A stretch of DNA of 64,000 nt from Acholeplasma sp. Its GTDB lineage: Bacteria; Bacillota_I; Bacilli_A; ML615J-28; CAG-698. Location of the stretch: positions 22,764 through 86,763 of the forward strand of contig DUOW01000018.1 of assembly GCA_012838635.1 (NCBI GenBank), in the 5' to 3' direction. Positions within the stretch are counted from its first letter, which is position 1; every line of letters begins with the position of its first letter. A program made the position numbers and the translations under genes. Positions 2,069 to 46,731 of the stretch are shown here, one piece after another. A model generated the notes under the pieces. The model saw only the letters and a list, made by a program, of their open reading frames with translations. It was not told where the DNA came from and made no database searches.

Positions 2069-2737
2069 ATGAATAAGAAAAAAAGAGCAGGAATTAAAGC
2101 TTGTGATTTCGTGAAAGATAAAATGATTGTTGGTCTTGGTACAGGATCTACTGCATTTTACCTGATTGAAGAATTAGGCAAAAGAAAACTAGATATTAAA
2201 GTTGTAGCTACTTCTAATCAAACTAAAAAATTAGCTTTGGATTTTGGATTGAATCTTTTAGAGTTAGAAGAAGTTGACCATATCGATCTAACAATCGATG
2301 GTGTTGATGAAATTGATCCTTCATTTAATGCAATTAAAGGTGGGGGTGGAGCCTTACTTTATGAAAAGATTGTTGCAACTAATAGTTCTAAAGTTATTTG
2401 GATTATGGATGATAGCAAACTAAAAGATGCTTTAGGTGAATTTTATTTACCAGTTGAAGTAATTGAGTATGGGCATAATTTTGCTTTTAATAAATTTAAA
2501 AAGTTAGGTTTAAATCCAAAAATTAGAACGAAAGATGATAAAGTTTTTAAAACAGATTCTAATAATGTTATTATTGATTTATATTTAGAAAAACCAATTG
2601 ATATTAAAAAAGTTAAAGCGATTCTAAATAATACAGCTGGGGTTGTAGAAGATGGATTGTTTTTAAATGTATGTGATTTAATCGTAGTTGGTTATGATGA
2701 TAAAGTAGAAGTTATCGAAAATAAAGGAAAGAAATAA
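2069..2737 (+). CDS. rpiA: ribose-5-phosphate isomerase A
   Basis: GLGTGST, DGVDEID and KGGGGA motifs. Confidence 0.9.
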   Translation: MNKKKRAGIKACDFVKDKMIVGLGTGSTAFYLIEELGKRKLDIKVVATSNQTKKLALDFGLNLLELEEVDHIDLTIDGVDEIDPSFNAIKGGGGALLYEKIVATNSSKVIWIMDDSKLKDALGEFYLPVEVIEYGHNFAFNKFKKLGLNPKIRTKDDKVFKTDSNNVIIDLYLEKPIDIKKVKAILNNTAGVVEDGLFLNVCDLIVVGYDDKVEVIENKGKK

Positions 2738-2748
2738 AGGAGTAAGAT

Positions 2749-3279
2749 ATGAATATTTGGCATAATATTAATGAAGAAAGAATAAAAGAAGATGATTTTA
2801 TTGCAGTTATCGAAATTACAAAAGGAAGTAAAACTAAATATGAATTAGATAAAGAAACAGGAATGTTAATTCTTGATCGTGTTTTATATACTTCAACACA
2901 CTATCCTGCGAACTATGGATTTATTCCCAGAACATATTGTGATGATGATGATCCATTAGATGTCTTAGTATTAGCATCAGAACCACTAGCGTCAATGTCA
3001 ATGGTTAGATGTTATCCAATTGGTGTTGTTAGAATGTTAGATAATAATGAAATTGATGATAAAATTATTGCGATTCCATTTGAAGATCCTACTTGGAATA
3101 ACTTTAATGAAATTTCCGAATTGTCTCCACATATTGAAAGTGAAATTATGCACTTCTTTAGTGTTTATAAAAGTTTAGAAAAGAAACCTACAGCTGCTAT
3201 TACTTCACATGGTAGGGAAAAAGCTATTCAAACTATTAAAGAAGCAATAGCAGCATATAAGGAGAAGTTTGGAGTATAA
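2749..3279 (+). CDS. ppa: inorganic pyrophosphatase (family I)
   Basis: DDDDPLDVLVL acidic cluster; typical length of 176 aa. Confidence 0.9.
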   Translation: MNIWHNINEERIKEDDFIAVIEITKGSKTKYELDKETGMLILDRVLYTSTHYPANYGFIPRTYCDDDDPLDVLVLASEPLASMSMVRCYPIGVVRMLDNNEIDDKIIAIPFEDPTWNNFNEISELSPHIESEIMHFFSVYKSLEKKPTAAITSHGREKAIQTIKEAIAAYKEKFGV

Positions 3280-4079
3280 TGTTTGGTTTAGACGCTAAAG
3301 TCAGTGCTTTTTTAGGAATTGCTTTAATTTTTTTAGCAACTACTGGAGGATCTGCACTTGTTTATTTAGTTAAAAATAAACTTCCTAAAAAAGTATTTAA
3401 AGGAATTATGGGTTTTGCTTCTGGTGTTATGATGAGTGCTGCTATCTTTTCATTATTGATACCATCGCTTGATCTTTCATTGGAGAAATATGGAGATTTT
3501 AAATTTCCTTATTTTCCTGCTATTATTGGTTTGGTTTTAGGAATAATCTTTTTGATGGTAATTGATAGATTGGTGCCTCACTTACATCAAGATTATAAAC
3601 AAGAAGGTTTACCATCTAATTTGAAACAATCAACGATGCTTTTCTTAGGAGTATCACTACATAATATTCCAGAAGGGTTATCAGTAGGTTTTGCTTTTGG
3701 TGTTGGGATTGCTAGTGGTAATTATGAGTTAGTTACATCTGCTGCAATGCTATCTATAGGAATAGCTATTCAAAATTTCCCTGAAGGTGCTGCTGTTAGT
3801 TTATGTTATAGACAGTCAGGGTATTCAAAAACAAAGTCATTTTTATTAGGGATGTTTTCTGGTTTAGTTGAACCTATTTTTGCCGTTTTGGGAATCTTGT
3901 TTGCGACATTATTTACAAGCTTAATGCCTTGGCTTTTAGCTTTTGCGGCAGGAGCAATGATTTATATTATTATTGAAGAGTTATTGCCTGCAAGTGTTGA
4001 TAAAGAATCTCATTCACATATTGGTGTAATTAGTTTCTTTGTTGGCTTTGTAATTATGTTGGTTATTGAATTGCTTTAA
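3279..4079 (+). CDS. ZIP-family zinc/metal transporter (ZupT-like)
   Basis: HNIPEG and QNFPEG motifs in a multi-TM protein. Confidence 0.85.
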   Translation: MFGLDAKVSAFLGIALIFLATTGGSALVYLVKNKLPKKVFKGIMGFASGVMMSAAIFSLLIPSLDLSLEKYGDFKFPYFPAIIGLVLGIIFLMVIDRLVPHLHQDYKQEGLPSNLKQSTMLFLGVSLHNIPEGLSVGFAFGVGIASGNYELVTSAAMLSIGIAIQNFPEGAAVSLCYRQSGYSKTKSFLLGMFSGLVEPIFAVLGILFATLFTSLMPWLLAFAAGAMIYIIIEELLPASVDKESHSHIGVISFFVGFVIMLVIELL

Positions 4080-4769: not shown

Positions 4770-6145
4770 TCATATGAAACTTAACAATAAAGTGGCTAAG
4801 CCGTAATAGATTAAAACGGTTATTAAGTCATTAAGTGTAGTAATTAGTGGTCCACTTGCCACTGCAGGGTCTACTTTAATTTTCTCAAAAAATAATGGTA
4901 CGATAATTCCAATTAAATTTGCAATAATTATAGAAATAAACATACTTAAACTAATAATACCAGAAACTTTAGAGCTGCTAGATAAGTAAAAGGTTCATCT
5001 TGAACAATTTCTGTTTTTGTAATCGCGATAAAAGCAAAAACAGAAATAAAACTAATAATACTTACTAGTAAACCTAAGAGCACACCAGTTAAAAGTTCTT
5101 TCCCCAAAATCCTTTTCCATTTTAGTTGTTGGGGGTCATTAAGACCAGTAATTGTCACAGCTAAGGATTGTGTTCCTACGTTACCAGACATACTTAATAA
5201 CATTGATTGGAAAAAGACCATTACAGGAATTGTAATAATTATGTTTTCAAAGCCTGAAATCATAAATGAAACTATAAAAGACAAAAACAATAAAACAATA
5301 AGCCATGGAATTCTTTTCTTGATTGTAGTCCAAATGTTATCTTCAACATCTGCTTCCTCGGTTAAACCGGCAAACTTAGCGTAGTCTTCGTGTACCTCTT
5401 CTTGATAAGCATCTAAAATATTATCACTTTCTAGTACTCCAACAAGGACTTCATTTTCATCTAGTACTGGAATTATATCCAAATCATATTCTACAATCTT
5501 ATAAATTTTATCTTCAATTAAATCATTTACATGTAAGATAGGATAGTTAGTTTTAATAATATCTTCAAAATTACTATCAGCTCTAGCAATGATTAAATCT
5601 TTTAAATTTACAGCACCATATAATGTTCCGTCATCATTTCAAACATAAAGAATGAAGATATTATCATTTTCAGCTGCTTCTAAAACCATTTTTTTCATTG
5701 CACCTTTAATTGTATCGTTTCTGTTAATGGTTATATAGTTTGTAGAGATAATACTACCGATTGTTTCTTCTTCGTATTGAGAAAGAGTGTCGATTTCTTC
5801 GGCGCTTTCATCATCAATTAACTCTAAGATGTTTTCTCTTTCGTCTTCATTTAGTTTTTTCAAAACATCTACAGCATCAACTGTATCCATTAAACTAATA
5901 ATCTCGGCAGTTTTTTCTTCATCTAGTTCATCAAAGTATTCTTTTGGATCTTCTAGGTAAGCAAAAATATCTGACAACTTTTGACTAGGAAGTGATTTGT
6001 ATAATTTTTGTCTTTCCTGGTCAGATAGAATTTGGAATGTAGAAGCGATATCGTAGTCGTGATATTTACTTAACAAACTTTTGATTTTTGTAGAACTATT
6101 TTTTTGAATAATGTGTTTAATTTTTAAAGTAGTAGTTGTGTTCAT
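4770..6145 (-). pseudogene. mgtE: Mg2+ transporter MgtE, disrupted by an in-frame TGA at 5639-5641 and a 1-nt frameshift near 4948-4950
   Basis: Three collinear frames reconstruct a ~456-aa MgtE: N-domain, CBS pair, TM region, and a C-terminus ending ...DPAVASGPLITTLNDLITVLIYYGLATLLL. Confidence 0.7.
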
Positions 6146-6279: not shown

Positions 6280-7296
6280 ATGAAATATAGTTTTTTAAAT
6301 GATTATAACACCTTAGCTCATCCAAAAGTATTCGAATATCTTCAAAAATATATCAATGAAGCTAATGTTGGATATGGTTTAGATGAACATTCAAAAAATG
6401 CTAAAAAGATGATTTTAGATAAAATTGGAAAAGATTACGATGTTCACTTTTTAGTTGGGGGAACTAGCGCTAATAAAATAGTTTTATCGCATTTTCTAAA
6501 ACCTTATGAAGCTGTAATTTGTCCTGAAAGTGCCCATATTAATAGAAGAGAAACAGGGGCTTTAGAAGCAACCGGTCACAAGATTTTAACTGCTAAAAGT
6601 GAAGATGGGAAAATTACTCTAGAAGGTATCAAAGAAGTATTAGCTGAACATACAGATGAACATATGGTTTTACCAAGAATTGTTTCTATTTCGTATACAA
6701 CAGAATATGGTACAGTATATTCGAAAGAAGAATTAAAGGATATTGCTGATTTATGTAAAGCAAATAATCTTTTACTTTATGTAGATGGAGCAAGATTAAC
6801 TTATGGTCTTGCAGCAACTGCCCTTTCTTTAAAAGAATTTGCTAAGATTCCTGACTTTTTCACAATCGGTGGGACGAAGGCTGGAGCAATGTTGGGAGAA
6901 GCTGTCGTACTTAAAAAAAGCAAAGCAGCAGAAAACTTCAGATTTTCACTAAAACAAAATGGTGGAATGCTAGCAAAGGGATTTTTAATTGGTATTCAAT
7001 TTGAAGCTTTACTTACCGATAATTTACTTCTAAAAATTTGTGAAGATGCTAATAAGAAAGCAGTATATTTAAAAGAGAAATTAAAGGAACTAAATATAGA
7101 GTTTTTATTTGACTCTAATACTAATTTACAGTTTCCTATTTTAAGTAACAAAGCAGTAAAAGCTTTAAAAGAAAAATATTTATTCTCAGTTTGGGAGCCA
7201 AGAAAGAATGATGCAGTTATTAGACTAGTAACTACATATGATACTGATATTAAGATGATAGATCAATTTGTAGGAGATCTAAGAAAAGAGTTATAG
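6280..7296 (+). CDS. low-specificity threonine aldolase / beta-eliminating lyase family, PLP-dependent
   Basis: GGTSAN and TIGGTKAGA motifs. SD AAGGAG 9 nt before the ATG at 6280. Confidence 0.75.
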   Translation: MKYSFLNDYNTLAHPKVFEYLQKYINEANVGYGLDEHSKNAKKMILDKIGKDYDVHFLVGGTSANKIVLSHFLKPYEAVICPESAHINRRETGALEATGHKILTAKSEDGKITLEGIKEVLAEHTDEHMVLPRIVSISYTTEYGTVYSKEELKDIADLCKANNLLLYVDGARLTYGLAATALSLKEFAKIPDFFTIGGTKAGAMLGEAVVLKKSKAAENFRFSLKQNGGMLAKGFLIGIQFEALLTDNLLLKICEDANKKAVYLKEKLKELNIEFLFDSNTNLQFPILSNKAVKALKEKYLFSVWEPRKNDAVIRLVTTYDTDIKMIDQFVGDLRKEL

Positions 7297-8340
7297 ATGA
7301 AAAGAAAAGTTAAAGTAGGAAATTTAAAAGCAGGGAAGAATAATGCTATTACTGACGTTAAGGGAGTAAAAGTTGGTCATGTAACTTATCATGATGAACA
7401 ACATCATACAGGAGTAACGGCTATTGTTCCTAAAGACAATATTTTTCAAGAAAAAGTACTTGCTTCTTGTTATACATTTAATGGCTTTGGTAAAAGTATT
7501 GGCTTTATGCAAGTTGAAGAATTAGGAACTTTGGAAACGCCAATTATTCTTACAAACACTTTAGCTGTTGGGAGAGCTGCTGATGGTTTAATCCATTATA
7601 TGCTAGATAAAAATCCAGATATTTGTATTAAAACTGGTTCTGTCAATCCTTTAGTTATGGAATGTAATGATGCCATCGTAAACAATATTAGAGATATTAT
7701 TATCACTAAAGAAGATGTTTATAAAGCTATTGATAATGCAAGTAGTAATTTCAAACAAGGATCATATGGTGCTGGAAGTGGAATGGTTTGTCATAGCTTA
7801 AAAGGTGGTATTGGTTCATCTAGCAGGGTTATAGCAATTGATAATAAAGAATATACAGTTGGTGTTTTAGTAAATTCAAATTTCGGTAATTCTAAAGATT
7901 TAGTTTTTAATAAAGTTTTTATTGGAGATAAAATCAATCTTGAAGATAAATCTAAAGATCAAGGATCAATTACGATTGTTGTTGCAACTGATATACCTTT
8001 AAACAACTTACAATTAAAAAGAGTTGCTAAAAGAGCAATCATTGGTGTAACAAATACTGGTAGTATTGCAAGTAATGGTAGTGGAGAAATGATTCTTGCT
8101 TTTACAACGGCTAATTTAGTTCCTCATTATGGGAAAGATAAAGTGTTAAATATCAAATCAGTTCATAATGACAATATTGATTTAGTCTTTAGAGCTGTCG
8201 TAGAAGCAACGGAAGAAGCTATTTTAAACTCTTTATTAGAAAATAAGACAATTAAAGGTTATCAGAAGAAAGTTTATGCTTTAGAAGAGTTTAAGGAAGT
8301 TTATGAAGATTTACTAATAAAGGAAAGTAAAGATGTATAA
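7297..8340 (+). CDS. DmpA/S58-family L-aminopeptidase / D-Ala-esterase-amidase (autoproteolytic G|S site QGSITIVVATD)
   Basis: Conserved self-cleavage Gly-Ser nucleophile context. Confidence 0.7.
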   Translation: MKRKVKVGNLKAGKNNAITDVKGVKVGHVTYHDEQHHTGVTAIVPKDNIFQEKVLASCYTFNGFGKSIGFMQVEELGTLETPIILTNTLAVGRAADGLIHYMLDKNPDICIKTGSVNPLVMECNDAIVNNIRDIIITKEDVYKAIDNASSNFKQGSYGAGSGMVCHSLKGGIGSSSRVIAIDNKEYTVGVLVNSNFGNSKDLVFNKVFIGDKINLEDKSKDQGSITIVVATDIPLNNLQLKRVAKRAIIGVTNTGSIASNGSGEMILAFTTANLVPHYGKDKVLNIKSVHNDNIDLVFRAVVEATEEAILNSLLENKTIKGYQKKVYALEEFKEVYEDLLIKESKDV

Positions 8341-37785: not shown

Positions 37786-38315
37786 AACGAAGAGATTTAT
37801 TGTTATTTGCCTTTTTAGTTTTAGTTGTAGTTGGTTTAATTTTTGGAGTAAAGATTGAAAGTGTTGATGAATACTATTTAAGAAATACTGAGAATATTAC
37901 TGAAGATAGTGAAGTAGTTTATTTACAGATTGAATGTAAAGTATTAATAAATAAAACTGAAAATATTAAACAATCTTTACTTGATGAAGGTATTATTCCT
38001 GATGATGGGATTTTCTTAAAAGAGAAGACTTTAGTTTTAAGAAATAAAGACACGGTTATGTCAATTCTAAAAAGAGCTAGTAGATATTATCGGTTTAATT
38101 TAGAAGGTGAAGGACTTAATGGCAGTTATTATATTGAAGGAATATATGATTTGTATGAATTTGATTGTGGACCTTTAAGTGGATGGTTATTTTATGTAAA
38201 TGGGGAAAGATCGGGGCAATCATCAGATAAAGTTTATTTAGAAAATGGCGATAAAGTCGTTTTAAAGTATTCTTGCGATATGGGTAATGATCTTTTAGGA
38301 GATGTTCATGAATAA
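37782..38315 (+). CDS. DUF4430 (transcobalamin-like C-terminal beta-domain) protein, N-terminal membrane anchor
   Basis: Hallmark GPLSGWLFYVNGERSGQSSDKVYLENGDKVVLKY. ATGA overlap with the upstream gene. Confidence 0.75.
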   Translation: MKRRDLLLFAFLVLVVVGLIFGVKIESVDEYYLRNTENITEDSEVVYLQIECKVLINKTENIKQSLLDEGIIPDDGIFLKEKTLVLRNKDTVMSILKRASRYYRFNLEGEGLNGSYYIEGIYDLYEFDCGPLSGWLFYVNGERSGQSSDKVYLENGDKVVLKYSCDMGNDLLGDVHE

Positions 38316-39189
38316 GATTAAGAGTTTCCATCCACTTACGATTTTTCTCTTCTTTATTTTGAATATGACCTTTACTTTATTTACTTATAATCCTATGATT
38401 TTAGGAATTTCGTTGGTAGTTAGTTTATTTTATTCTTTGTATTATCACGATTTTAAAATCTTTTTAGGAAATATCGGCTTTTATTTATTCACAATTTTGT
38501 TTATTGTTTTAATAAATCCATTGTTTAATCATCGTGGTTCAACAATTCTCTTTTTCTTAAATGAACAAGCTATTACTAAGGAATCAATTATTTTTGGTTT
38601 AGCTATTTCTATAGCCCTAGTTAGCATTATTGTATGGAGTTCAATTTTCTCTTATACAATGGATACTGATAAGAATATGTATTTGTTTTCTAGGGTATCA
38701 GTTAATCTAGCTATAATTATTGCTTTAGTTTTACGTTTTATTCCAGAAATGAAAAGAAAGAAACAAGAGTTTATTGATACTCAGACTACTTTAGGAATGA
38801 AGAAAACTAAAAGTTTAAGTGTAAGATTAAGTATAAGTTATCAGATTTTACTTGCATTAATAACTTGGTCTTTAGAGCATTATTTAACTTTAAGTTTAAG
38901 TATGAAGGCTCGAGGTTATAAACAAGGTAAAAGAAGTTATTATCATAATTATGCTTTTAAGTTAAAAGATTTTGTACTTCTATTATTTGGTTTTTTATTG
39001 TTAGCTTTTTATATTTATTGTAATTATCAAGGACATTTATACTTTTACTATTACCCAGTTATAGGACAGTTAAAAATAAATATTTATAGTATTATTTTGT
39101 TTAGTGCTAGCTTTTTGTTTATGATGCTACCATTAATTTATGAGATAGGAGTGAGCTTAAAATGGCATTTCTTAAGGCGAAAAATTTAA
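38302..39189 (+). CDS. ecfT: ECF transporter transmembrane (T) component
   Basis: CbiQ-family topology; conserved ARG motif (SMKARGY). Confidence 0.75.
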   Translation: MFMNKIKSFHPLTIFLFFILNMTFTLFTYNPMILGISLVVSLFYSLYYHDFKIFLGNIGFYLFTILFIVLINPLFNHRGSTILFFLNEQAITKESIIFGLAISIALVSIIVWSSIFSYTMDTDKNMYLFSRVSVNLAIIIALVLRFIPEMKRKKQEFIDTQTTLGMKKTKSLSVRLSISYQILLALITWSLEHYLTLSLSMKARGYKQGKRSYYHNYAFKLKDFVLLLFGFLLLAFYIYCNYQGHLYFYYYPVIGQLKINIYSIILFSASFLFMMLPLIYEIGVSLKWHFLRRKI

Positions 39190-40802
39190 GTTTTAGATAT
39201 TTAGATGATACCTTTACTTTAAGTAACGTTAACTTTTCTTTAGAGAAAGGTGATTTTTGCTTGGTTGTAGGTAAGACTGGGTGTGGTAAGACAACGCTAC
39301 TTAGGCTTTTGAAGAAAGAAATTACTCCTAGTGGTTCATTAAAAGGGGAAGTAAAGATTAATGGACTTGATTTAAAAGATTATGATTCAAATAAGATTGT
39401 TTATATGTTTCAAAATCCTTCAAGACAAATTGTTAGTGATAAAGTTTATCATGAGATTGTTTTTGGCTTAGAAGCAAGAGGTATTGAAAAGGAAGTTATG
39501 GAAGCTAAACTAGCGGAGATAGTAAATTATTTAGATATTAATGATTTACTTAATAAACATACAATGGAACTTTCTGGAGGAGAAGCCCAACTTGTAAGTT
39601 TGGCATCACTTTTAGTATTAGATCCAGAAGTCATTTTGCTAGATGAAGCATCATCACAATTAGATCCACTAACTAGAAAAAAGTTTTTAGAGATTTTAAA
39701 AAGAATTAATCAAGATTTTGGAATTACAATTATTTTAGTTGAACATAATTTAGAAGATGTTTTAGAGTTTACTGATAAAGTGATAGTTTTAGATCAAGGA
39801 AAGATGCTTTATTTTGGAGTTAAAGATGAGGCAATTGATTTTCTTGGCAATAATGAAGAATATTTTAATTTCTTATCAAAAACATTACAAATTTCCAAAC
39901 ATTTAAATTTAGGGAATTTGCTTCATTTGAAAGATGTTAAGGAAGCATTAAAAAGTAAGTACAAAAATGAGATTAATTTTGAGTATGAGATAAAAGATTT
40001 TGAAAAAGAAATCATTAAAGCAGAAGATTTATATTATCGCTATAGCAAGAAAGAAAGAGATGTTTTAGAAAAGCTTTCTTTAACTGTTTATGATAATGAG
40101 ATCTTAGGATTTGTTGGGGGAAATGGTGTTGGTAAAACAACATTACTTAAAAATTTAGCTGGAATTAGAACTTTCTATTCAGGTAAAATAGAGATTGAAA
40201 ATAAGAATATTAAGAAATATAAAGGTAATTCACTATATAAGAATTTAATAGCTTATTTACCACAAGATCCTCTAACATTATTCTTAAAACGAACTGTAGG
40301 TGAAGACTTAGGGTATTATGTAAAGAGTTTAGATTTAGATAAAGATTTATTAAATAGATTAATTAAGAAATTTAGGATTGAAAATTTATTAGAAATGAGT
40401 CCTTATGACTTATCTGGGGGAGAATTACAAAAATGTGCTTTTACAAAAATTTTGCTTTCGAAGCCTAAGATTTTACTTTTAGATGAACCAACTAAAGGTA
40501 TGGATTTTAGTTTAAGAGAAGAACTAAAAAAAATATTATTAGCATTACAAAAAGAAGGGGCAACGATTATTATTGCAACGCATGATTTAGAGTTTATTGC
40601 AAGTATTGCCGATAGAGTTGGAATTATGTTTAATGGTAAAGTTTTAAGCCTAACTGATAGTCATAGTTTCTTTAGCAACAGCAATTTTTATACAACTGTT
40701 GCTTCACTTGCATCAAGAAAGCTTTATGATAAAGTTATTACTGTTCCTGAGCTTGTAGAGATAGCTATGAAGAATGGAATTAAAGATGAAAAAGATAATT
40801 AG
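39162..40802 (+). CDS. ecfA: ECF transporter fused duplicated ATPase (EcfA1-EcfA2 / CbiO-type)
   Basis: Two Walker A motifs (GKTGCGKTT; GGNGVGKTT), two LSGGE signatures, two Walker B motifs. Confidence 0.85.
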   Translation: MAFLKAKNLSFRYLDDTFTLSNVNFSLEKGDFCLVVGKTGCGKTTLLRLLKKEITPSGSLKGEVKINGLDLKDYDSNKIVYMFQNPSRQIVSDKVYHEIVFGLEARGIEKEVMEAKLAEIVNYLDINDLLNKHTMELSGGEAQLVSLASLLVLDPEVILLDEASSQLDPLTRKKFLEILKRINQDFGITIILVEHNLEDVLEFTDKVIVLDQGKMLYFGVKDEAIDFLGNNEEYFNFLSKTLQISKHLNLGNLLHLKDVKEALKSKYKNEINFEYEIKDFEKEIIKAEDLYYRYSKKERDVLEKLSLTVYDNEILGFVGGNGVGKTTLLKNLAGIRTFYSGKIEIENKNIKKYKGNSLYKNLIAYLPQDPLTLFLKRTVGEDLGYYVKSLDLDKDLLNRLIKKFRIENLLEMSPYDLSGGELQKCAFTKILLSKPKILLLDEPTKGMDFSLREELKKILLALQKEGATIIIATHDLEFIASIADRVGIMFNGKVLSLTDSHSFFSNSNFYTTVASLASRKLYDKVITVPELVEIAMKNGIKDEKDN

Positions 40803-41484
40803 ATATGCGGTCATATTTGGCTTAATTCCTTTAATTTTGGTTTTGTTTTATTTTTTACTTGATTCAAAACAATATGGAATTATTTCTGTCTTAATTGCGA
40901 TATTGGCATTAATACCATTCTATTTATCTTTTGAAGGCTCAAAACCTAAAATTGAAGAGTTAATTCTAGTGGCAATTGTTATTGCTATTAATATCGTTTC
41001 AAGAATTCTTTTTGCACCTTTACCAGGTATTAAACCAATTGGGGCAATCATTATTATTGCTGCTTTAATTTTTGGAAAAGAAGCAGGGTTTATGATTGGC
41101 TCTTTAACAATGGCTATTTCCAACTTTTATTTTGGACAAGGACCATGGACACCATTTCAGATGTTTGGTTTTGGGATTATAGGTTATTTAGCTGGTTTAT
41201 TTAAGAATAATTTTTTAAAGAAAAATATCTATTTTGTTTTATTTTTAGGAGGGTTATCAGGAATCTTTTATGTTCTCTTGATTGATGTTTGGACAACACT
41301 TCAAGTAACATCAGGATTTAATTTTAAAGATTATTTTAACTTTATCATTATTTCAACCCCAACAACAATTGGTTATATGGCTTCAAATATGTTGTTTTTG
41401 ATCTTGCTTTATAAACCTTTGATGAATTTATTTGAAAGAATTCAAAAAAAGTTTAATCTTTTTAATGATAAAACTAGTAAATAA
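40774..41484 (+). CDS. putative ECF substrate-specific (S) component, CbrT-like (cobalamin)
   Basis: 236-aa 6-TM protein, last gene of the B12-riboswitch operon. Confidence 0.5.
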   Translation: MELKMKKIIRYAVIFGLIPLILVLFYFLLDSKQYGIISVLIAILALIPFYLSFEGSKPKIEELILVAIVIAINIVSRILFAPLPGIKPIGAIIIIAALIFGKEAGFMIGSLTMAISNFYFGQGPWTPFQMFGFGIIGYLAGLFKNNFLKKNIYFVLFLGGLSGIFYVLLIDVWTTLQVTSGFNFKDYFNFIIISTPTTIGYMASNMLFLILLYKPLMNLFERIQKKFNLFNDKTSK

Positions 41485-41562: not shown

Positions 41563-42057
41563 ATGAAAGTTATTGTGAGGAATGCTTTAATAGCAGCGCT
41601 TTATGTAGTCTTTACAATTATCAATCCTTTTTCTTTTGAAAACATTCAATTTAGAATTTCTGAAGTATTGATTTTGCTTGTTTTCTTTAGAAAAGACTAT
41701 TTCTTAGGATTAGTTGTTGGCTGTATTATTGCTAATATGTTTAGTCCAATGGGTATTTATGATGTCATCTTTGGAACGTTAGCTACTGTTTTAAGTTTAA
41801 TCTGTATTATGTACTCTAAACACTTATTTATTACTTGGATCTTTCCAACTGTGTTTAATGCTTTTATTGTTGGGTTAGAATTATACTTAATTTTAGAGTT
41901 GCCATTTTGGTTAAGTGTTCTAGGAGTTGCAATTGGAGAAGCAGTTGTAATGATTATAGGGGTAGTTTTATTTTATTTCTTAAAAAGAAATGATGCTTTT
42001 ATGAATTTAATAAAAGCTAATCAAAACTATACTTTTAAAGATGATTTAAGTAGTTAG
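41563..42057 (+). CDS. queT: queuosine-precursor transporter QueT (ECF-type S component)
   Basis: 164-aa 5-TM QueT-like protein directly after the preQ1 riboswitch. Confidence 0.7.
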   Translation: MKVIVRNALIAALYVVFTIINPFSFENIQFRISEVLILLVFFRKDYFLGLVVGCIIANMFSPMGIYDVIFGTLATVLSLICIMYSKHLFITWIFPTVFNAFIVGLELYLILELPFWLSVLGVAIGEAVVMIIGVVLFYFLKRNDAFMNLIKANQNYTFKDDLSS

Positions 42058-42088
42058 TGGATGTAAACGTTTTATGTGATGAAAATGC

Positions 42089-42117
42089 TGGACATTCATT
42101 TAAATATGGGGTATAAT
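42089..42117 (+). promoter_or_regulatory. promoter (TGGACA, 17 bp spacer, TATAAT)
   Basis: Positions the TSS ~25 nt upstream of the leader-peptide ATG. Confidence 0.5.
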
Positions 42118-42147
42118 GAAAATAATAAAATTAGGAGGAAAAGAACT

Positions 42148-42207
42148 ATGTTAGTTAATTTTCAAAACAAATTTTATTACTATTATTACTTTCCAAGGAT
42201 ATCATAA
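42148..42207 (+). CDS. 19-aa leader peptide MLVNFQNKFYYYYYFPRIS with five consecutive Tyr codons
   Basis: SD AGGAGG 9 nt upstream. Tyr run flanked by Phe codons. Confidence 0.55.
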   Translation: MLVNFQNKFYYYYYFPRIS

Positions 42208-42249
42208 AGGTTTCTTGGCCTTTTTCCTGTTGTGAAAGTGCCAATATAA

Positions 42250-42351
42250 CTGTTATTATGATATCAAACGTAAAAGTTTAATTGATAAGTAATAACAGTA
42301 TTCTAAAATATTATTAGATTAAAATGTGTTATTACTTATAACACATTTTTT
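42250..42351 (+). promoter_or_regulatory. transcription attenuator with mutually exclusive 1:2 / 2:3 / 3:4 helices plus a T-run
   Basis: Region 1 CTGTTATTA 42250-58. Region 2 ATAAGTAATAACAG 42285-98. Region 3 TGTTATTACTTAT 42327-39. Terminator GTGTTAT-tactt-ATAACAC + T6 at 42326-42351. Confidence 0.55.
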
Positions 42352-42371
42352 AATTTAAGGAGGTTTATAAA

Positions 42372-43349
42372 ATGAAATTAAGAAGAATGCTAGGAATGAT
42401 TTTAGTATTTATATTTGGTGTTTTATTAGTAGGTTGTAAGAAAGATGATAAAACACAAATCGGGATTTTGCAACTTGTTGCAGCACCTGCTTTAGATGAA
42501 GCGAGAATTGGCTTTTTAGAAGTATTAGAAGAAAATGGATTTAAGGATGGAGAGAATATTAAAGTTACTCTTGAAATCCCTAATGCAGACCAAACTGTTA
42601 TGATGCAACAAGCAAAAAGTTTAGTAAGAAAATCAGATCTTATTTTATCTATTGCCACAAACGCAACAGCAGCAGCCCAAAATGCTTTAATTGAAGCAAA
42701 TAAAACGACACCGCTTTTATTTACAGCAGTTACTGATCCAGTAGCTCATGGATTTGTAGAGTCAATGGCTAAACCAGGAGGTCATATTACTGGTACTAGT
42801 GATATGAACCCAGTAGTAGAACAAGTAGGGCTTGCAAAAGATCTTTTACCTGAGGCAACTAAGATTGGCTTCTTATATAACTCAAATGAGGAAAATTCAA
42901 GAGTTCAAGTAGAAATGGGTGTTGCAGCAGCTGAAAGTTTAGGAATGACTACTGTTGTAAAAACAATTAGTGAAGTTAACCAAATTGATCAAGTTGCAAG
43001 AAGTTTATTTAATGATGTAGATATTGTTTATGTACCAACGGATAATATGTTAGCTCAAAATATGGTACTACTTACAAATCTTTCATTAAGTACAAAGAAA
43101 CCAATTATTGCTGGTGAAGAAAATCAAGTTCGTGATGGAGCTTCAATTACATTTGGTATTAACTACCGTGATTTAGGAAGACAAACAGGACAAATGGCAG
43201 TTGAGATTTTGAAAAATGGTAAGAAACCTCAAGATATTCCTGCTGCTGTGTCAGAAACATATACTTTAATTGTAAACAAAACAAATTTAGAAGCAATGGG
43301 TATTACTGTTAGCCAAGCATTATTAGATAAAGCTGACGAAGTTATTTAG
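42372..43349 (+). CDS. ABC transporter substrate-binding lipoprotein (COG2984 / ABC_sub_bind family; predicted amino-acid importer)
   Basis: LVGC lipobox; family-typical periplasmic domain. Confidence 0.75.
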   Translation: MKLRRMLGMILVFIFGVLLVGCKKDDKTQIGILQLVAAPALDEARIGFLEVLEENGFKDGENIKVTLEIPNADQTVMMQQAKSLVRKSDLILSIATNATAAAQNALIEANKTTPLLFTAVTDPVAHGFVESMAKPGGHITGTSDMNPVVEQVGLAKDLLPEATKIGFLYNSNEENSRVQVEMGVAAAESLGMTTVVKTISEVNQIDQVARSLFNDVDIVYVPTDNMLAQNMVLLTNLSLSTKKPIIAGEENQVRDGASITFGINYRDLGRQTGQMAVEILKNGKKPQDIPAAVSETYTLIVNKTNLEAMGITVSQALLDKADEVI

Positions 43350-43363
43350 AAAGGAGCATAGTT

Positions 43364-44299
43364 ATGGAATTAGTAAGTGTCTTATTTGATTCCTTACAAG
43401 AAGGATTAGCATATGCTATTTTAGTTATAGGTGTTTTTATTTCTTTTAGAATGTTAGATTTTGCGGATATGACATGTGAAGGATCGCTAACAATGGGTGC
43501 TGCAATTACAATGGTAATGATTACTAGTGGAATTAATCCTATTTTAAGTGTCTTAGTTGCCTTTGTTTTAGGAACTATTGCAGGTATTATTACGGCCTTA
43601 CTTCACACAAAATTAAAAATACCACCTCTTTTAGCTGGTATCATTATGATGACTGCTTTATATTCCATTAACTTGCAAGTTATTCAAGGTGGAAGATCAA
43701 CAGTTATTATGACTTATGGGGAAACAAAAACTATTTTCTCATTTTTAGAAAATATGATTCCATCTACATCATTTATTACAAACTTTCAAAGTTCAAAATT
43801 AATTGTTTTAACACTAGTATTGATACTTGTTTTCTTTGCAATTTACTATTTCTTTGGAACAGAAATTGGTATGAGTATTAGAAGTACAGGCATGAATAAA
43901 GATATGAGTAAAGCAATGGGAATTAATACTGATTTAATGATTATTATCGGCTTAGCCCTATCAAATGGTTTAATTGCTTTAAGTGGATCTTTAATCGCCC
44001 AAAAAAATGGTAGTAGTAATATGGATATTGGAAGAGGTACTTTAGTTATCGGACTTGCAGCAATCATTTTAGGTGAAGCTATTTTTGGTAAGAGGACATT
44101 TAAAAACTGGTTGATTTCTGTCATTTTAGGTTCATTTATTTACCAAATAATTGTAGCTATCGCAATTAATGTTTTTGGTTTAAATCCAAACTTCTTGAAG
44201 TTAATCCAAGCTGTTTTAATTGTAGCTATTTTGGCTATTCCTTTAATCAAGTCACAAATTAAAAAATTTAAAACAAGAAAGGAATTAAAAGCATGTTAG
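43364..44299 (+). CDS. ABC transporter permease (COG4120 family)
   Basis: Multi-TM protein, operon partner. Confidence 0.75.
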   Translation: MELVSVLFDSLQEGLAYAILVIGVFISFRMLDFADMTCEGSLTMGAAITMVMITSGINPILSVLVAFVLGTIAGIITALLHTKLKIPPLLAGIIMMTALYSINLQVIQGGRSTVIMTYGETKTIFSFLENMIPSTSFITNFQSSKLIVLTLVLILVFFAIYYFFGTEIGMSIRSTGMNKDMSKAMGINTDLMIIIGLALSNGLIALSGSLIAQKNGSSNMDIGRGTLVIGLAAIILGEAIFGKRTFKNWLISVILGSFIYQIIVAIAINVFGLNPNFLKLIQAVLIVAILAIPLIKSQIKKFKTRKELKAC

Positions 44300-45081
44300 A
44301 ACTTAAGAACATAACAAAGATTTTCAATCCTGATATACTAGAAGATAGAAGAGTAGCTTTAGATAATCTTTCTTTAGAAATTGAAGATGGTGAATTTGTG
44401 ACTGTTATTGGTAGTAATGGTTCTGGTAAATCGACACTATTAAATATTATTAATGGTAAATATATGCCTGATTTTGGAAAGGTTATTTTGGATGGTGAAG
44501 ATATTACGAGTTTAAAACAACACCAAAAAGCAAAATATATTGGAACTGTTTTTCAAGACCCTCATCAAGGAACGGCAAGTCAAATGTCTGTTTTAGAAAA
44601 CTTTGAGATTGCTAAGCGCCGAGGGAAAAGAAAGACATTAAAATGGGGTTTTAGTGCGCAAAATAGAGAAGATTTTATTGTACAATTGAGTAAATTTGAT
44701 TTAGGCTTAGAGAAAAGATTAACCCAAAAAATTGGGACTTTATCTGGAGGTCAAAGACAAGCAATTACTTTAATTATGGCTACTTTAAATAATCCAAAAT
44801 TATTATTACTAGATGAGCATACAGCAGCATTAGATCCTAATACTGCTACAAAAGTATTAGAGATTACCAATGAAATAATTAAAGCAGAAAAACTAACAAC
44901 AATTATGGTTACTCATAATATGAAAGATGCCATTAATTATGGGGATAGACTAATTATGTTAGATCAAGGGAAGATTATTTTCGATTGTAAGGGTGAAGAG
45001 AAGAAAAACTTAACTATTCCAGTCTTACTTCAAAAATTCTCTTCTAAAGCTGTAATTAATGATGAATTGATATTAAGTTAA
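44293..45081 (+). CDS. ABC transporter ATP-binding protein (COG1101 family)
   Basis: GSNGSGKST Walker A, LSGGQRQ signature, LLLDEHTAALD Walker B. Confidence 0.85.
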   Translation: MLELKNITKIFNPDILEDRRVALDNLSLEIEDGEFVTVIGSNGSGKSTLLNIINGKYMPDFGKVILDGEDITSLKQHQKAKYIGTVFQDPHQGTASQMSVLENFEIAKRRGKRKTLKWGFSAQNREDFIVQLSKFDLGLEKRLTQKIGTLSGGQRQAITLIMATLNNPKLLLLDEHTAALDPNTATKVLEITNEIIKAEKLTTIMVTHNMKDAINYGDRLIMLDQGKIIFDCKGEEKKNLTIPVLLQKFSSKAVINDELILS

Positions 45082-45165: not shown

Positions 45166-46731
45166 ATGAAAAAAATATTGAATGCATTTTTATTCCTTTT
45201 ATGCATTATCGGATTAAAAGGATTACAAATTAAGGCTATTGACTGGGAGTTTATTCCAAAAGGAATAAATTATATTTCTAAAGATCAGTTTATTATGACA
45301 GAAACTGATGAAGATGTTATCTTGACATCATACCGTTATATTAAAATAGATAGCAGTATCACATATTGGTTAAAAGCTGGAAGTGAGAATAACTTAAACA
45401 ATATTACATTTAAAGATAGTAGTTACAGAAGTAATAAAGTGTTAGCAGAAGAAGGAAGCTGGCAACAACTAACAAAAACAGGAACGCCACTTGATTATAG
45501 TAGTAGCATTGAGTATTTACGTTTAAGTTTTAAATATCCTAAAGCTAGTAATGATTTCTTAACACCAGAACAAGTATTTGAAAATTTAGAAATTTATTTC
45601 AACTTATATGATTCAAGTTTATTTAACCCTGATAGTGATTTTACCTATCAAGGAGTAGATTATAGTTCTTATAGTCAAATAAATAGTAAAGATTTAAGAA
45701 TATCATATCAAACGAGTTTTAATTTGACGGAATTTGAAAACAGCTTAATGGCTTATGATAACTATGATGGTAATATAACTGCAAAGATTATAAAAAAAGT
45801 TGACACTTATAGTGCTCAAGAAAATAGAGTTGGGAACTATTTAGTTCAATATTCAGTTCAAGATGAAGCATTAAATGAATCAACTTTTACTTTAAATTTG
45901 GAGGTTTATGATGAAATCCCCCCAACAATTTCTGGTTTAAACAGTTATGAAAAAAGTGTTAATGAAGAATTAAGTGTTGAAGAGTTAAAGACAGTTTTAG
46001 GCATAACAGCTCATGATGATTATGATGGTAATCTTACAGATAATATTGTTATCGAAAATGATCTTTATACAGGAAAGGAAAATACTGTTGGGGAACATAC
46101 AGTGACTTATAAAGTAGCTGATAGTTCTAATAACACTACTTTCTTTACTGCTACAGTAATCGTAACTGATAGTGAAGGCCCAGTTTTTACTGGTGAAAAT
46201 AGTTATACAGTAAATACCGATGAAACATTAGATTTAGAAGAAATAAGATTAAGTTTAAGAGCAGTAGATGCTGTTTCTGGTAATTGCTTTGTAGAGTTAC
46301 ATTTAGATAATTATAGCTTTAATAAAACAAAAGTAGGAGTTTATGATGTAATTTATAAAGCTAGTGATAACGAAGGTAATACAACATACTTTACAGTAAC
46401 AGTTACTGTAAAAGATAATATTCCACCAATTTTCATGATTAAGTTAAATCCAATCAATATGGCTACAAGTTCACCATTATCAATTTCTAATGTTTTAGAT
46501 ATGACAAGACCATATTATGGTTTTGATACTAATCTAGTCTATGAAGATAGAGCATTAGTTGAAGGTGAAAATATTATTCATTTAAGTAGCGATAATCAAA
46601 ACTACGAGTTAACGATTAATTATATTAAAACAGAAAAAAAAGAACCATCAGTAAGAGATAGTTCTAAAAAATTAAACTTCTTTGAGAGAATTAGACTCTT
46701 CTTTAGAAGAATTTTCGGCCGCCTTTTTTAA
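45166..46731 (+). CDS. secreted protein with three tandem bacterial Ig-like (DUF5011-type) repeats
   Basis: Signal peptide. Repeats starting YDNYDGNIT..., HDDYDGNLT..., AVDAVSGN..., each ending ...GN.T.FT.TV.V.D..PP. Confidence 0.6.

Follow-up and report, generated by a model that had tools for sequence, protein, structure and literature searches.

In the trp and pheA leaders of E. coli, a run of aromatic codons in a short upstream open reading frame (uORF) precedes an intrinsic terminator, and a 1:2 hairpin with its pause synchronizes ribosome and RNA polymerase. The attenuator of the his operon, reportedly described by Johnston et al. in 1980, is said to be a six-segment relay in which the pairings A:B, C:D and E:F alternate with B:C and D:E. 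The his leader mechanism of Salmonella and E. coli has been summarized (PMC9413887), and His-leader attenuators have been predicted in the B. cereus group, Peptostreptococcaceae and Erysipelotrichales (PMC9413887). The uORFC-13-1 motif, with 24 representatives reported, lies upstream of Acholeplasma aroF (PMC8632094). Within the PF04392 transporter family, T-boxes control the Trp transporter trpXYZ (S. suis TrpX; PMC9382623) and hisXYZ transporters (PMC9413887). Here we analyze an element that lies in front of a PF04392-type importer in a 64,000-nucleotide (nt) stretch of Acholeplasma sp. DNA (contig DUOW01000018.1 of assembly GCA_012838635.1); this whole stretch is hereafter the window, and its features are numbered along its full length. 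On sequence grounds we consider it very likely that the element is a ribosome-mediated transcription attenuator that senses the supply of tyrosyl-tRNA ahead of a tyrosine-type ABC importer; the supply of phenylalanyl-tRNA is probably sensed as well. We know of no characterized attenuator that reads Tyr codons. A literature search, which lacked most subscription journals and in which absence is therefore not proof, found no published description of a Tyr-codon leader or of this RNA.

The original prediction for this locus placed a promoter, a Shine–Dalgarno (SD) sequence, a 19-codon open reading frame (ORF), three mutually exclusive helices and a terminator upstream of the importer. Each of these elements is present in the sequence, with small corrections to the coordinates. 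The leader, read directly from the sequence between 41700 and 42700, comprises the following features:

42089–42117, plus strand: sigma-70-type promoter, TGGACA (42089–42094), a 17-nt spacer and TATAAT (42112–42117), matching the consensus at 11 of 12 positions
42133–42138, plus strand: SD sequence AGGAGG of the leader ORF, 9 nt 5′ of its ATG, from sequence reading
42148–42207, plus strand: leader ORF of 19 codons, MLVNFQNKFYYYYYFPRIS followed by a stop, with its own SD and start, after the promoter and before the importer genes
42172–42192, plus strand: putative sensor run Phe-Tyr5-Phe (TTT TAT TAC TAT TAT TAC TTT), with the five Tyr codons TAT TAC TAT TAT TAC at 42175–42189 and the TTT flanks at 42172 and 42190
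42187–42198, plus strand: 5′ strand of helix P0, UACUUUCCAAGG, consisting of the last Tyr, Phe, Pro and Arg codons; partners CUUGG at 42214–42218 and GAAAGUG at 42234–42240
42198–42207, plus strand: tail of helix PX, GAUAUCAUAA, consisting of the final ORF codons and the stop codon; a perfect 10-bp complement of 42256–42265
42214–42225, plus strand: 3′ arm of P0, CUUGG, then C and a U-tract at 42221–42225; candidate pause or early-stop signal
42234–42240, plus strand: GAAAGUG box; partner UACUUUC (an extension of P0) or the U-tract
42250–42265, plus strand: R1, which is region 1 of the original prediction (CUGUUAUUAU) with the 3′ flank GAUAUC; partner the PX tail or R2
42285–42298, plus strand: R2, AUAAGUAAUAACAG; partner R1 (anti-antiterminator P1) or R3 (antiterminator AT)
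42324–42351, plus strand: intrinsic terminator AUGUGUUAU-UACUU-AUAACACAU with U6 at 42346–42351, R3 being the 5′ arm and R4 the 3′ arm; −8.6 kcal/mol

The promoter is the top promoter-like site between 41500 and 43000; it is unchanged in eight relatives save for one spacer base, and other family members carry comparable promoters 25–40 nt 5′ of the leader ATG. P1 joins CTGTTATTA (42250–42258) to TAATAACAG (42290–42298), and AT joins ATAAGTAATAACA (42285–42297) to TGTTATTACTTAT (42327–42339) in 13 perfect pairs. The terminator has the core GTGTTAT-tactt-ATAACAC, with a stem extendable to 9 bp (42324–42332 with 42338–42346), and is followed by the SD AAGGAGG (42357–42363) and the ATG of the binding-protein gene (42372), 25 nt further on. 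The small hairpins CCAAGG...CTTGG and AAAGG...CCTTT are present too. As a whole, the 256-nt leader folds with a z-score of −4.48 relative to dinucleotide shuffles, none of 200 of which folds equally well. A Tyr-codon run by itself is not significant inside the window (three matches to TAYx4 versus 0.9 expected); the significance of the leader comes from its conservation, not from the count of such runs.

Close relatives of the binding protein, 90–91% identical and found in metagenome-assembled genomes named ‘Bacilli bacterium’, have an identical gene order. In these relatives, the intergenic region that holds the leader is 96% identical overall and ~98% identical from promoter to terminator; the flanking genes are 80–89% identical and two other intergenic regions 80–82%. 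The 4–5 differences in the ~263 nt between the −35 box and the terminator each fall in a predicted unpaired spacer. Across the 60 nt of the uORF there is no substitution, synonymous positions included, in relatives at ~90% protein identity, which fits constraint on the uORF as codons and as RNA together. Judged from these sequence comparisons, the leader is under purifying selection.

To follow the leader further, we used the 80 closest species-level homologous loci in GTDB genomes (38–48% protein identity). An SD-led uORF with a Tyr/Phe run lies just upstream of the binding-protein gene in 23 of them, the other parts of the peptide being variable (for example, MFIPLACSQFYYYYYYPRGYQE, MKIRSFAQSYYYYYYPRKIV, MKNLNSTFKQYYYYYYYYFPSESRN, MNSTNRHYYYYYYFPSVSR and MKQILLNQFFFFYFQGRYCD). 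According to their record titles, the leader-bearing loci come from Acholeplasmataceae, several uncultured Bacilli, Staphylococcaceae, Eubacteriales, Anaerofustis, Streptococcus and Carnobacterium. A crude regular expression for the T-box gave scattered matches among the 80 loci, and at Rfam gathering thresholds no T-box or other cis-regulator was found in 20 scanned loci of the 57 that have no leader. Just upstream of the Tyr-leader locus L011 (1928–2116, minus strand), there is a sub-threshold T-box match (69.9 bits versus a gathering threshold of 93; E = 4e-13) that presumably belongs to the divergent neighboring gene.

We also scanned metagenome contigs with three RNA arms only (GTTATTAY...GTAATAAC...GTGTTATTAC), a search that is blind to both ORF and gene. 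Of the 34 loci returned, 29 lie upstream of a binding-protein homolog, and 28 of these 29 carry a Tyr-run uORF, the exception (L094) having only 52 nt of upstream sequence. The five other matches (L091, L102, L111, L122 and L113) were rejected as unrelated chance matches in high-GC contigs. Two tandem near-perfect palindromes, CGTTATTACCATC...GGTAATAACG, stand in L113 at ~530–610, just 5′ of a 368-residue ORF; they resemble an operator bound by a protein and have nothing to do with the attenuator.

Among 33 non-redundant leaders, the uORF has 18–36 codons, and Tyr codons average 5.2 per run and Phe codons 1.7, with both synonyms of each in use (TAT 118, TAC 53, TTT 52 and TTC 5). An SD-like motif precedes the chosen start in 29 of the 33, and in the other four the SD stands at an upstream in-frame ATG. 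Outside the Tyr/Phe run, the peptide is not conserved across leaders, even at its N terminus. A hairpin followed by a U-run lies 23–45 nt 5′ of the binding-protein start codon in all 17 leaders examined for it. The same segment topology and a Tyr-run uORF are found in L011, L075 and L018, whose arm sequences are unrelated, and the RNA family comprises at least 45 loci. Orthologous leaders thus keep the Tyr run, and, as described below, they conserve the alternative helices with compensatory changes, the two comparisons to which the original prediction had pointed. Its choice of tyrosine as the signal agrees with the Tyr run but may need widening: Phe codons belong to the run, and the signal may be Tyr plus Phe.

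One operon, in L108, holds two attenuators of the window type (5846–5992 and 7195–7336), each before its own binding-protein paralog. Their leaders read ...NQFYYYYYLPRRYQS and ...NQFFYYFYFPRRYLVN, and both proteins have the Glu/Tyr pocket discussed below. The second of these attenuators is intergenic within the operon; queT is upstream, as in the window.

The original prediction remarked that region 1 lies ~43 nt past the leader stop codon and left the coupling of ribosome to RNA unsettled. The distance is correct, but the gap is closed by a helix that had been overlooked, PX, which pairs the tail of the ORF with the 3′ half of R1. In the window, the tail GAUAUCAUAA (42198–42207), ending in the stop codon, perfectly complements UUAUGAUAUC (42256–42265), which is the 3′ half of R1 with its flank. 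An equivalent pairing of tail and R1 exists in every family member, with differing sequences: GAUGUCAUGUAAU with AUUACAUGAUAUC, AUCGUGUAA with UUACACGAU, AAGAUAUUGUG with CACAAUAUCUU, CUCGUAA with UUACGAG and CGUUUCC with GGAAACG. In an alignment-free comparison (n = 32), cognate tail:R1 duplexes have a mean energy of −16.3 kcal/mol versus −10.1 kcal/mol for non-cognate ones, and none of 20,000 permutations is as good (p < 5e-5). The same comparison restricted to 16 representatives of distinct sequence types gives −16.3 versus −9.3 kcal/mol (p <= 5e-6), and for these representatives the flank alone, with the conserved core excluded, gives −9.4 versus −5.2 kcal/mol. Covariation also links the 3′ flank of R1 to the 5′ flank of R2 (−4.0 versus −1.3 kcal/mol, p = 5e-5). 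The R1 flank therefore coevolves with two alternative partners, which is the signature of a switch.

Because plain MAFFT does not bring PX into register, we relied on these alignment-free tests and on a covariance-model alignment; the latter is fitted to the model and hence biased toward the structure, a bias from which the alignment-free tests are free. Ten leaders, the window excluded, served to build the model, which describes the ‘on’ state, with PX and the antiterminator formed. It recovers the window at 42187–42338 (57.6 bits, E = 7e-8) and gives 34 matches in 99 sources, all of them before binding-protein homologs. In the resulting alignment, 93.2% of cells are paired versus 84.7% in shuffles, and 19 of 27 pairs show double-sided changes versus 7.8 in shuffles (0/500). 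Compensatory change is seen in 8 of the 11 pairs of the main PX stem and in 8 of the 10 pairs of the antiterminator helix, which is 96.9% paired in the 33 distinct rows among the 34 matches. Slid controls score at most one third on this alignment.

The second helix near the ORF, P0, pairs the end of the Tyr run and CCAAG (the Pro-Arg codons) with CUUGG and the GGAAGUAAG/GAAAGUG box, and it encloses the PX tail. The box is kept across the family as GGAAGUAAG or GAAAGUAA. P0 covaries, cognate pairs being more stable than non-cognate ones (p = 5e-5), and its 3′ arm is followed within 0–3 nt by at least four U residues in 31 of 33 leaders, members with unrelated arms included. A classical 1:2 helix between the Tyr run and the ORF tail was considered and is unsupported (−2.3 versus −2.2 kcal/mol, p = 0.29).

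The behavior of P0 bears on the possibility that the leader works by TnaC-like arrest of the nascent peptide, with YYYYYFPR acting from within the exit tunnel to stall the ribosome, and with free tyrosine or some other small molecule, not the supply of tyrosyl-tRNA, as the signal. Many leaders do read F-P-R or F-P-S after the run, and a proline directly past the run could slow peptide-bond formation. Pairing of the RNA explains why these residues are frequent: the Pro-Arg or Pro-Ser codons supply CCAAG, the 5′ arm of P0, which covaries as CUAAG with CUUAG, UCAAGAU with AUCUUGA and CAAGGAAG with CUUCUUUG. Members without Pro exist (FLRR, FQGR, YQHK and YRKQ), and they change both P0 arms together; only the Tyr/Phe codons are universal. 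Induction by free Tyr would, moreover, be the wrong logic for an importer. We therefore regard peptide arrest as unlikely, and a ribosome slowed by scarce charged tRNA as the preferred account of the run.

The arms of the downstream helices raise a different possibility, namely that the repeated GUUAUUAC/GUAAUAAC elements are a binding site for a protein or tRNA that chooses between terminator and antiterminator, as TRAP, PyrR and T-boxes do, with the uORF incidental or auxiliary. These 8-mers are near-invariant across distant lineages (42250–42340 in the window and family members with GUUAUUAC-type arms), a conservation greater than one helix requires; their sequence repeats the Tyr codons UAU UAC and includes GUA, the anticodon of tRNA-Tyr. 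Having two or three pairing partners per arm would freeze the sequence anyway, and L011, L075 and L018, with unrelated arms, keep both the Tyr-run uORF and the relay. Multiple partners explain the invariance in part, but not the likeness of the arms to the sensor codons. The SD and ATG of the uORF are conserved, and neither a T-box nor any other Rfam family is matched. Rfam 15 gives no match in the leader at E <= 10, the only match in 41900–42500 being a spurious caiA that covers the SD, and the Trp_leader, His_leader, Phe_leader, Leu_leader, Thr_leader and leu/phe leader families have no match in the window. T-box (RF00230) was not found in the window leader, in five other leaders of the window topology or in five leaders of the Lactobacillales type, and the absence of a T-box sequence asserted in the original prediction is thus borne out for the window leader. 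On balance, a binding protein or tRNA as the primary regulator seems improbable to us, and we retain the translated uORF as the sensor. The Tyr run also pairs with R2 (−7.2 versus −6.5 kcal/mol, p = 3e-4) and might serve as a back-up decoy for it.

A metabolite riboswitch for tyrosine or a related compound, with the uORF there by chance, would account for the conservation, before a transporter, of a folded 5′ leader that holds both terminator and antiterminator, but we saw no conserved unpaired junction or pocket nucleotides, the spacers vary freely in length and sequence and the sole universal non-helical feature is an in-frame Tyr/Phe run with SD and ATG; this explanation is very unlikely. 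Equally remote is a terminated leader that itself acts as a small RNA or encodes a functional hydrophobic micropeptide: RF02863 (‘sRNA_2410’) does match the fold of the Lactobacillales leaders that we term class B, so such transcripts accumulate, but a terminated attenuator yields an abundant short transcript anyway, the peptide is not conserved outside the run and the element always lies directly upstream of the transporter on the same strand.

We then asked what the importer downstream of the attenuator is likely to carry. Its genes are:

42357–43349, plus strand: lipoprotein substrate-binding protein (PF04392, 2.3e-69), with the SD at 42357–42363, the gene at 42372–43349 and a Glu249/Tyr265 pocket
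43364–45081, plus strand: permease (PF02653, 43364–44299) and ATPase (PF00005, 44293–45081) of the same ABC importer

The closest solved structure to the binding protein is that of C. difficile CD0873 (6HNI, E = 3.9e-61). CD0873 binds tyrosine, and its specificity rests on Glu263, which hydrogen-bonds the Tyr hydroxyl and is Ala in Phe and Trp binders, and on Tyr279, which excludes Trp and is Gln in the Trp binder (PMC6816091). In HMMER alignments, Glu249 and Tyr265 of the window protein align with E242 and Y258 of the 6HNI chain, which are Glu263 and Tyr279 in the numbering of that paper. The Glu/Tyr pair is present in 18 of 18 leader-bearing loci with the RNA topology of the window (class A), and all 57 homologous loci without a leader (L013–L088) carry it as well. 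From these pocket residues, we predict that the window importer is of the tyrosine type, in keeping with the tyrosine or aromatic importer that the original prediction had implied. Conserved runs, covarying helices and Tyr-specific pocket residues together support its core reading, a ribosome-mediated Tyr attenuator before an importer.

L085 serves as an internal control; it encodes two tandem binding-protein paralogs (761–2011 and 2177–3415), each with its own leader. There, a Phe-run leader, MNQKNIQQLNNFFFFSFFRYRL (NNFFFFSFF), precedes an Ala/Tyr pocket of the Phe type, and a Tyr leader (...NYYGYYR) precedes a Ser/Tyr pocket. The leader codons of these two paralogs therefore track the chemistry of the pocket.

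How the switch would operate can be set out step by step. Transcription would start ~25 nt 5′ of the 19-codon ORF, and the RNA would form a relay of alternating complementary segments: the P0 5′ strand, the tail, R1, R2, R3 and R4. With a Tyr codon in the A site, a stalled ribosome would cover ~12 nt on the 5′ side of its P site and ~13 nt on the 3′ side. When Tyr is scarce, the ribosome would stall in the run and mask the 5′ strand of P0, exposing the tail, which it would leave unmasked because PX starts 0–10 nt past the run. The free tail would then capture the emerging R1 (PX), R2 would pair with R3 (AT), the terminator would be blocked and the importer transcribed. When Tyr is plentiful, a ribosome at the stop codon would mask the tail, so that R1 pairs with R2 (P1), R3 pairs with R4 and transcription ends at 42346–42351. 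Most of the individually read members have their stop codon within the PX tail; in the others, it lies a few to ~20 nt 3′ of the tail (for example, L016, L011, L009 and L018). Without translation, P0, P1 and the terminator would be expected to form. P0 with its U-tract may act as a pause that lets the ribosome catch the polymerase, like the 1:2 hairpin of the trp leader.

We calculated the energies of these states at the decision point, with the transcript ending at 42340, where R3 is out and R4 is not yet. With a stalled ribosome, PX plus AT has −40.7 kcal/mol versus −36.1 to −33.7 kcal/mol for P1; with the ribosome at the stop codon, P1 has −34.7 kcal/mol versus −33.2 kcal/mol for AT. The energy landscape of the window shifts in the expected direction by ~6–8.5 kcal/mol. 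In the full-length transcript, P1 plus terminator is lowest in any ribosome state, a preference for the terminated state that every attenuator shows. The elements, their conservation and covariation, the geometry and the direction of these energy differences come directly from the data.

Several observations weigh against this reading. Once R2 is out and R3 is not yet, P1 is more stable than PX by 4–5.5 kcal/mol in the window, and antitermination would thus require either kinetic persistence of PX or a pause of the polymerase. RNA that is not being translated also favors PX plus AT at the decision point, which makes a default-off state depend on P0 forming first, as we assume. At equilibrium, just 7 of 37 family members switch cleanly between the states with a stalled ribosome and with one at the stop codon. 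When full-length leaders were folded at equilibrium under ribosome masks, terminator probabilities were inconsistent across members, and the outcome also varied with the point of transcript truncation; we therefore relied on covariation and decision-point energies. The terminator is weak, with two G–C pairs and −8.6 kcal/mol. In L012 (FFFFYF) and L109, Phe-rich runs precede Glu/Tyr pockets, so that sensing of both Tyr and Phe is possible. The organism is an uncultured Bacilli/Acholeplasma-like bacterium known only from metagenome assemblies, and we infer both the kinetics of the attenuator and its actual response to tyrosine.

A further objection concerns the distance between ribosome and polymerase. 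Johnson et al. reportedly found in 2020 that transcription and translation are uncoupled in Bacillus subtilis. Uncoupling in this species is reported in PMC11698733 as well; if it also applies here, a ribosome would lag too far behind the polymerase for attenuation. The attenuator, if true, requires a ribosome close behind RNA polymerase in a phylum whose model organism reportedly uncouples the two. A tentative possibility, which we hold to be rather doubtful, is that this family represents natural, obligatory transcription–translation coupling in Bacillota/Acholeplasma-like bacteria, with P0 and the U-tract as a built-in polymerase pause or synchronizer.

The surroundings of the leader hold further features. 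A cobalamin riboswitch (RF00174, 35917–36105, plus strand; 110.9 bits, E = 6e-27) is the only Rfam family in the whole window and stands ~2 kb upstream of ECF-type transporter genes, which form a module upstream of the leader:

38302–39189: CbiQ-like T component of the ECF-type module
39162–40802: fused double ATPase of the module
40774–41484: S component of the module

Directly upstream of the Tyr leader lies queT (41563–42057, plus strand; PF06177, 6.8e-43); a preQ1 riboswitch is not among the Rfam matches of the window. Because tRNA-Tyr carries queuosine, the adjacency of queT and the Tyr leader is suggestive. A general link between queT and the leader was rejected, as the two are adjacent only in close relatives and L108 and not in other family members. 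Speculatively, the near-invariant arms might make the Tyr run a third decoy for R2, or might sense the decoding speed of UAU and UAC through the queuosine of tRNA-Tyr. On the 3′ side of the transporter, 45166–46731 (plus strand) encodes a 521-residue protein with bacterial Ig-like and HYR domains; at 78.5% DNA identity to the relatives, it is diverging faster than its neighbors.

If the attenuator works as proposed, tyrosine would be added to the amino acids sensed by leader-peptide attenuation. The RNA family delineated here counts at least 45 loci and has no model in Rfam 15, and the analysis points to a translated uORF in some Bacillota lineages whose relatives use T-boxes for the same transporter family. 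Leader codons together with two pocket residues offer a substrate assignment for the poorly annotated ‘tryptophan/tyrosine’ COG2984 importers. The Rfam ‘sRNA’ RF02863 is suggested to be a Tyr/Phe attenuator, and the family provides a compact natural system for asking whether Gram-positive ribosomes track RNA polymerase closely enough for attenuation.

Among the systems introduced at the outset, the T-box-controlled trpXYZ and hisXYZ transporters share with the window the PF04392 family, an importer induced when charged tRNA is scarce and a terminator/antiterminator output. There, however, uncharged tRNA binds the RNA directly, whereas the window lacks Stem I, specifier and T-box and has a translated uORF instead. 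The uORFC-13-1 motif, compared here by its description only, is likewise predicted to be a ribosome-mediated attenuator of aromatic supply in the same broad lineage, with a promoter, a ribosome-binding site, a Phe-codon uORF and an adjacent terminator; unlike the window element, it precedes a biosynthetic gene (DAHP synthase) and uses a U-run/Phe sensor. The His leaders predicted in Firmicutes also place leader-peptide attenuation in low-GC Gram-positives, and they too were found by comparative genomics, but their amino acid and cargo differ and their RNA is unrelated. The original prediction had called a leader-peptide attenuator unusual in such bacteria; with these His leaders (PMC9413887) and the Phe-run uORF upstream of Acholeplasma aroF (PMC8632094) as predicted precedents, that judgment is too strong.

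Class B leaders, from Streptococcus and Carnobacterium, have peptides such as ...NHYYYFSFFR followed by a stop and ...NNYFFSYF..., and their RNA is built from UAGAU/AUCUA units. They are matched by RF02863 (‘Enterococcus sRNA_2410’), L085 at 64.4 bits (gathering threshold 61) and the others at 36–46 bits, as follows:

L027, 313–489: match to RF02863
L034, 2257–2463: match to RF02863
L051, 2191–2375: match to RF02863
L066, 2205–2377: match to RF02863
L085, 2232–2400: match to RF02863

Like the window element, these leaders lie upstream of the same transporter family and combine a Tyr/Phe-run uORF with a six-segment relay that ends in a terminator. They differ in having an unrelated fold and repeat (UAGAU/AUCUA versus UAUUAC/GUAAUA in the window) and in the classical placement of the sensor codons, within segment 1; the window has no match to the RF02863 model. 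RF02863 looks like a leader-peptide attenuator rather than a free-standing small RNA.

The E. coli trp and pheA leaders share an aromatic codon run and a terminator with the window, where P0 and its U-tract are the candidate counterpart of the 1:2 pause hairpin, but they have four segments versus six. The his leader is closer. In both, a run of regulatory codons precedes segments that complement one another in alternation; stalling of the ribosome releases the second of them, a downstream shift of register removes the terminator, and the position of the stop codon lets a terminating ribosome bring the terminator register back. For the window, these correspondences follow the mechanism proposed above. 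The two differ in codons (Tyr/Phe versus His), in cargo (an importer versus a biosynthetic operon) and in host (Bacillota versus Proteobacteria). In the window, the second segment, the tail, lies in the loop of P0 and not in its 3′ strand, and the stalled ribosome would mask the 5′ strand of P0 and not the pairing segment itself. The two leaders share no sequence similarity, and the Rfam His_leader model has no match in the window. Overall, this RNA family and its Tyr specificity seem undescribed, whereas the kind of mechanism is classical and its architecture is closest to that of the his leader.

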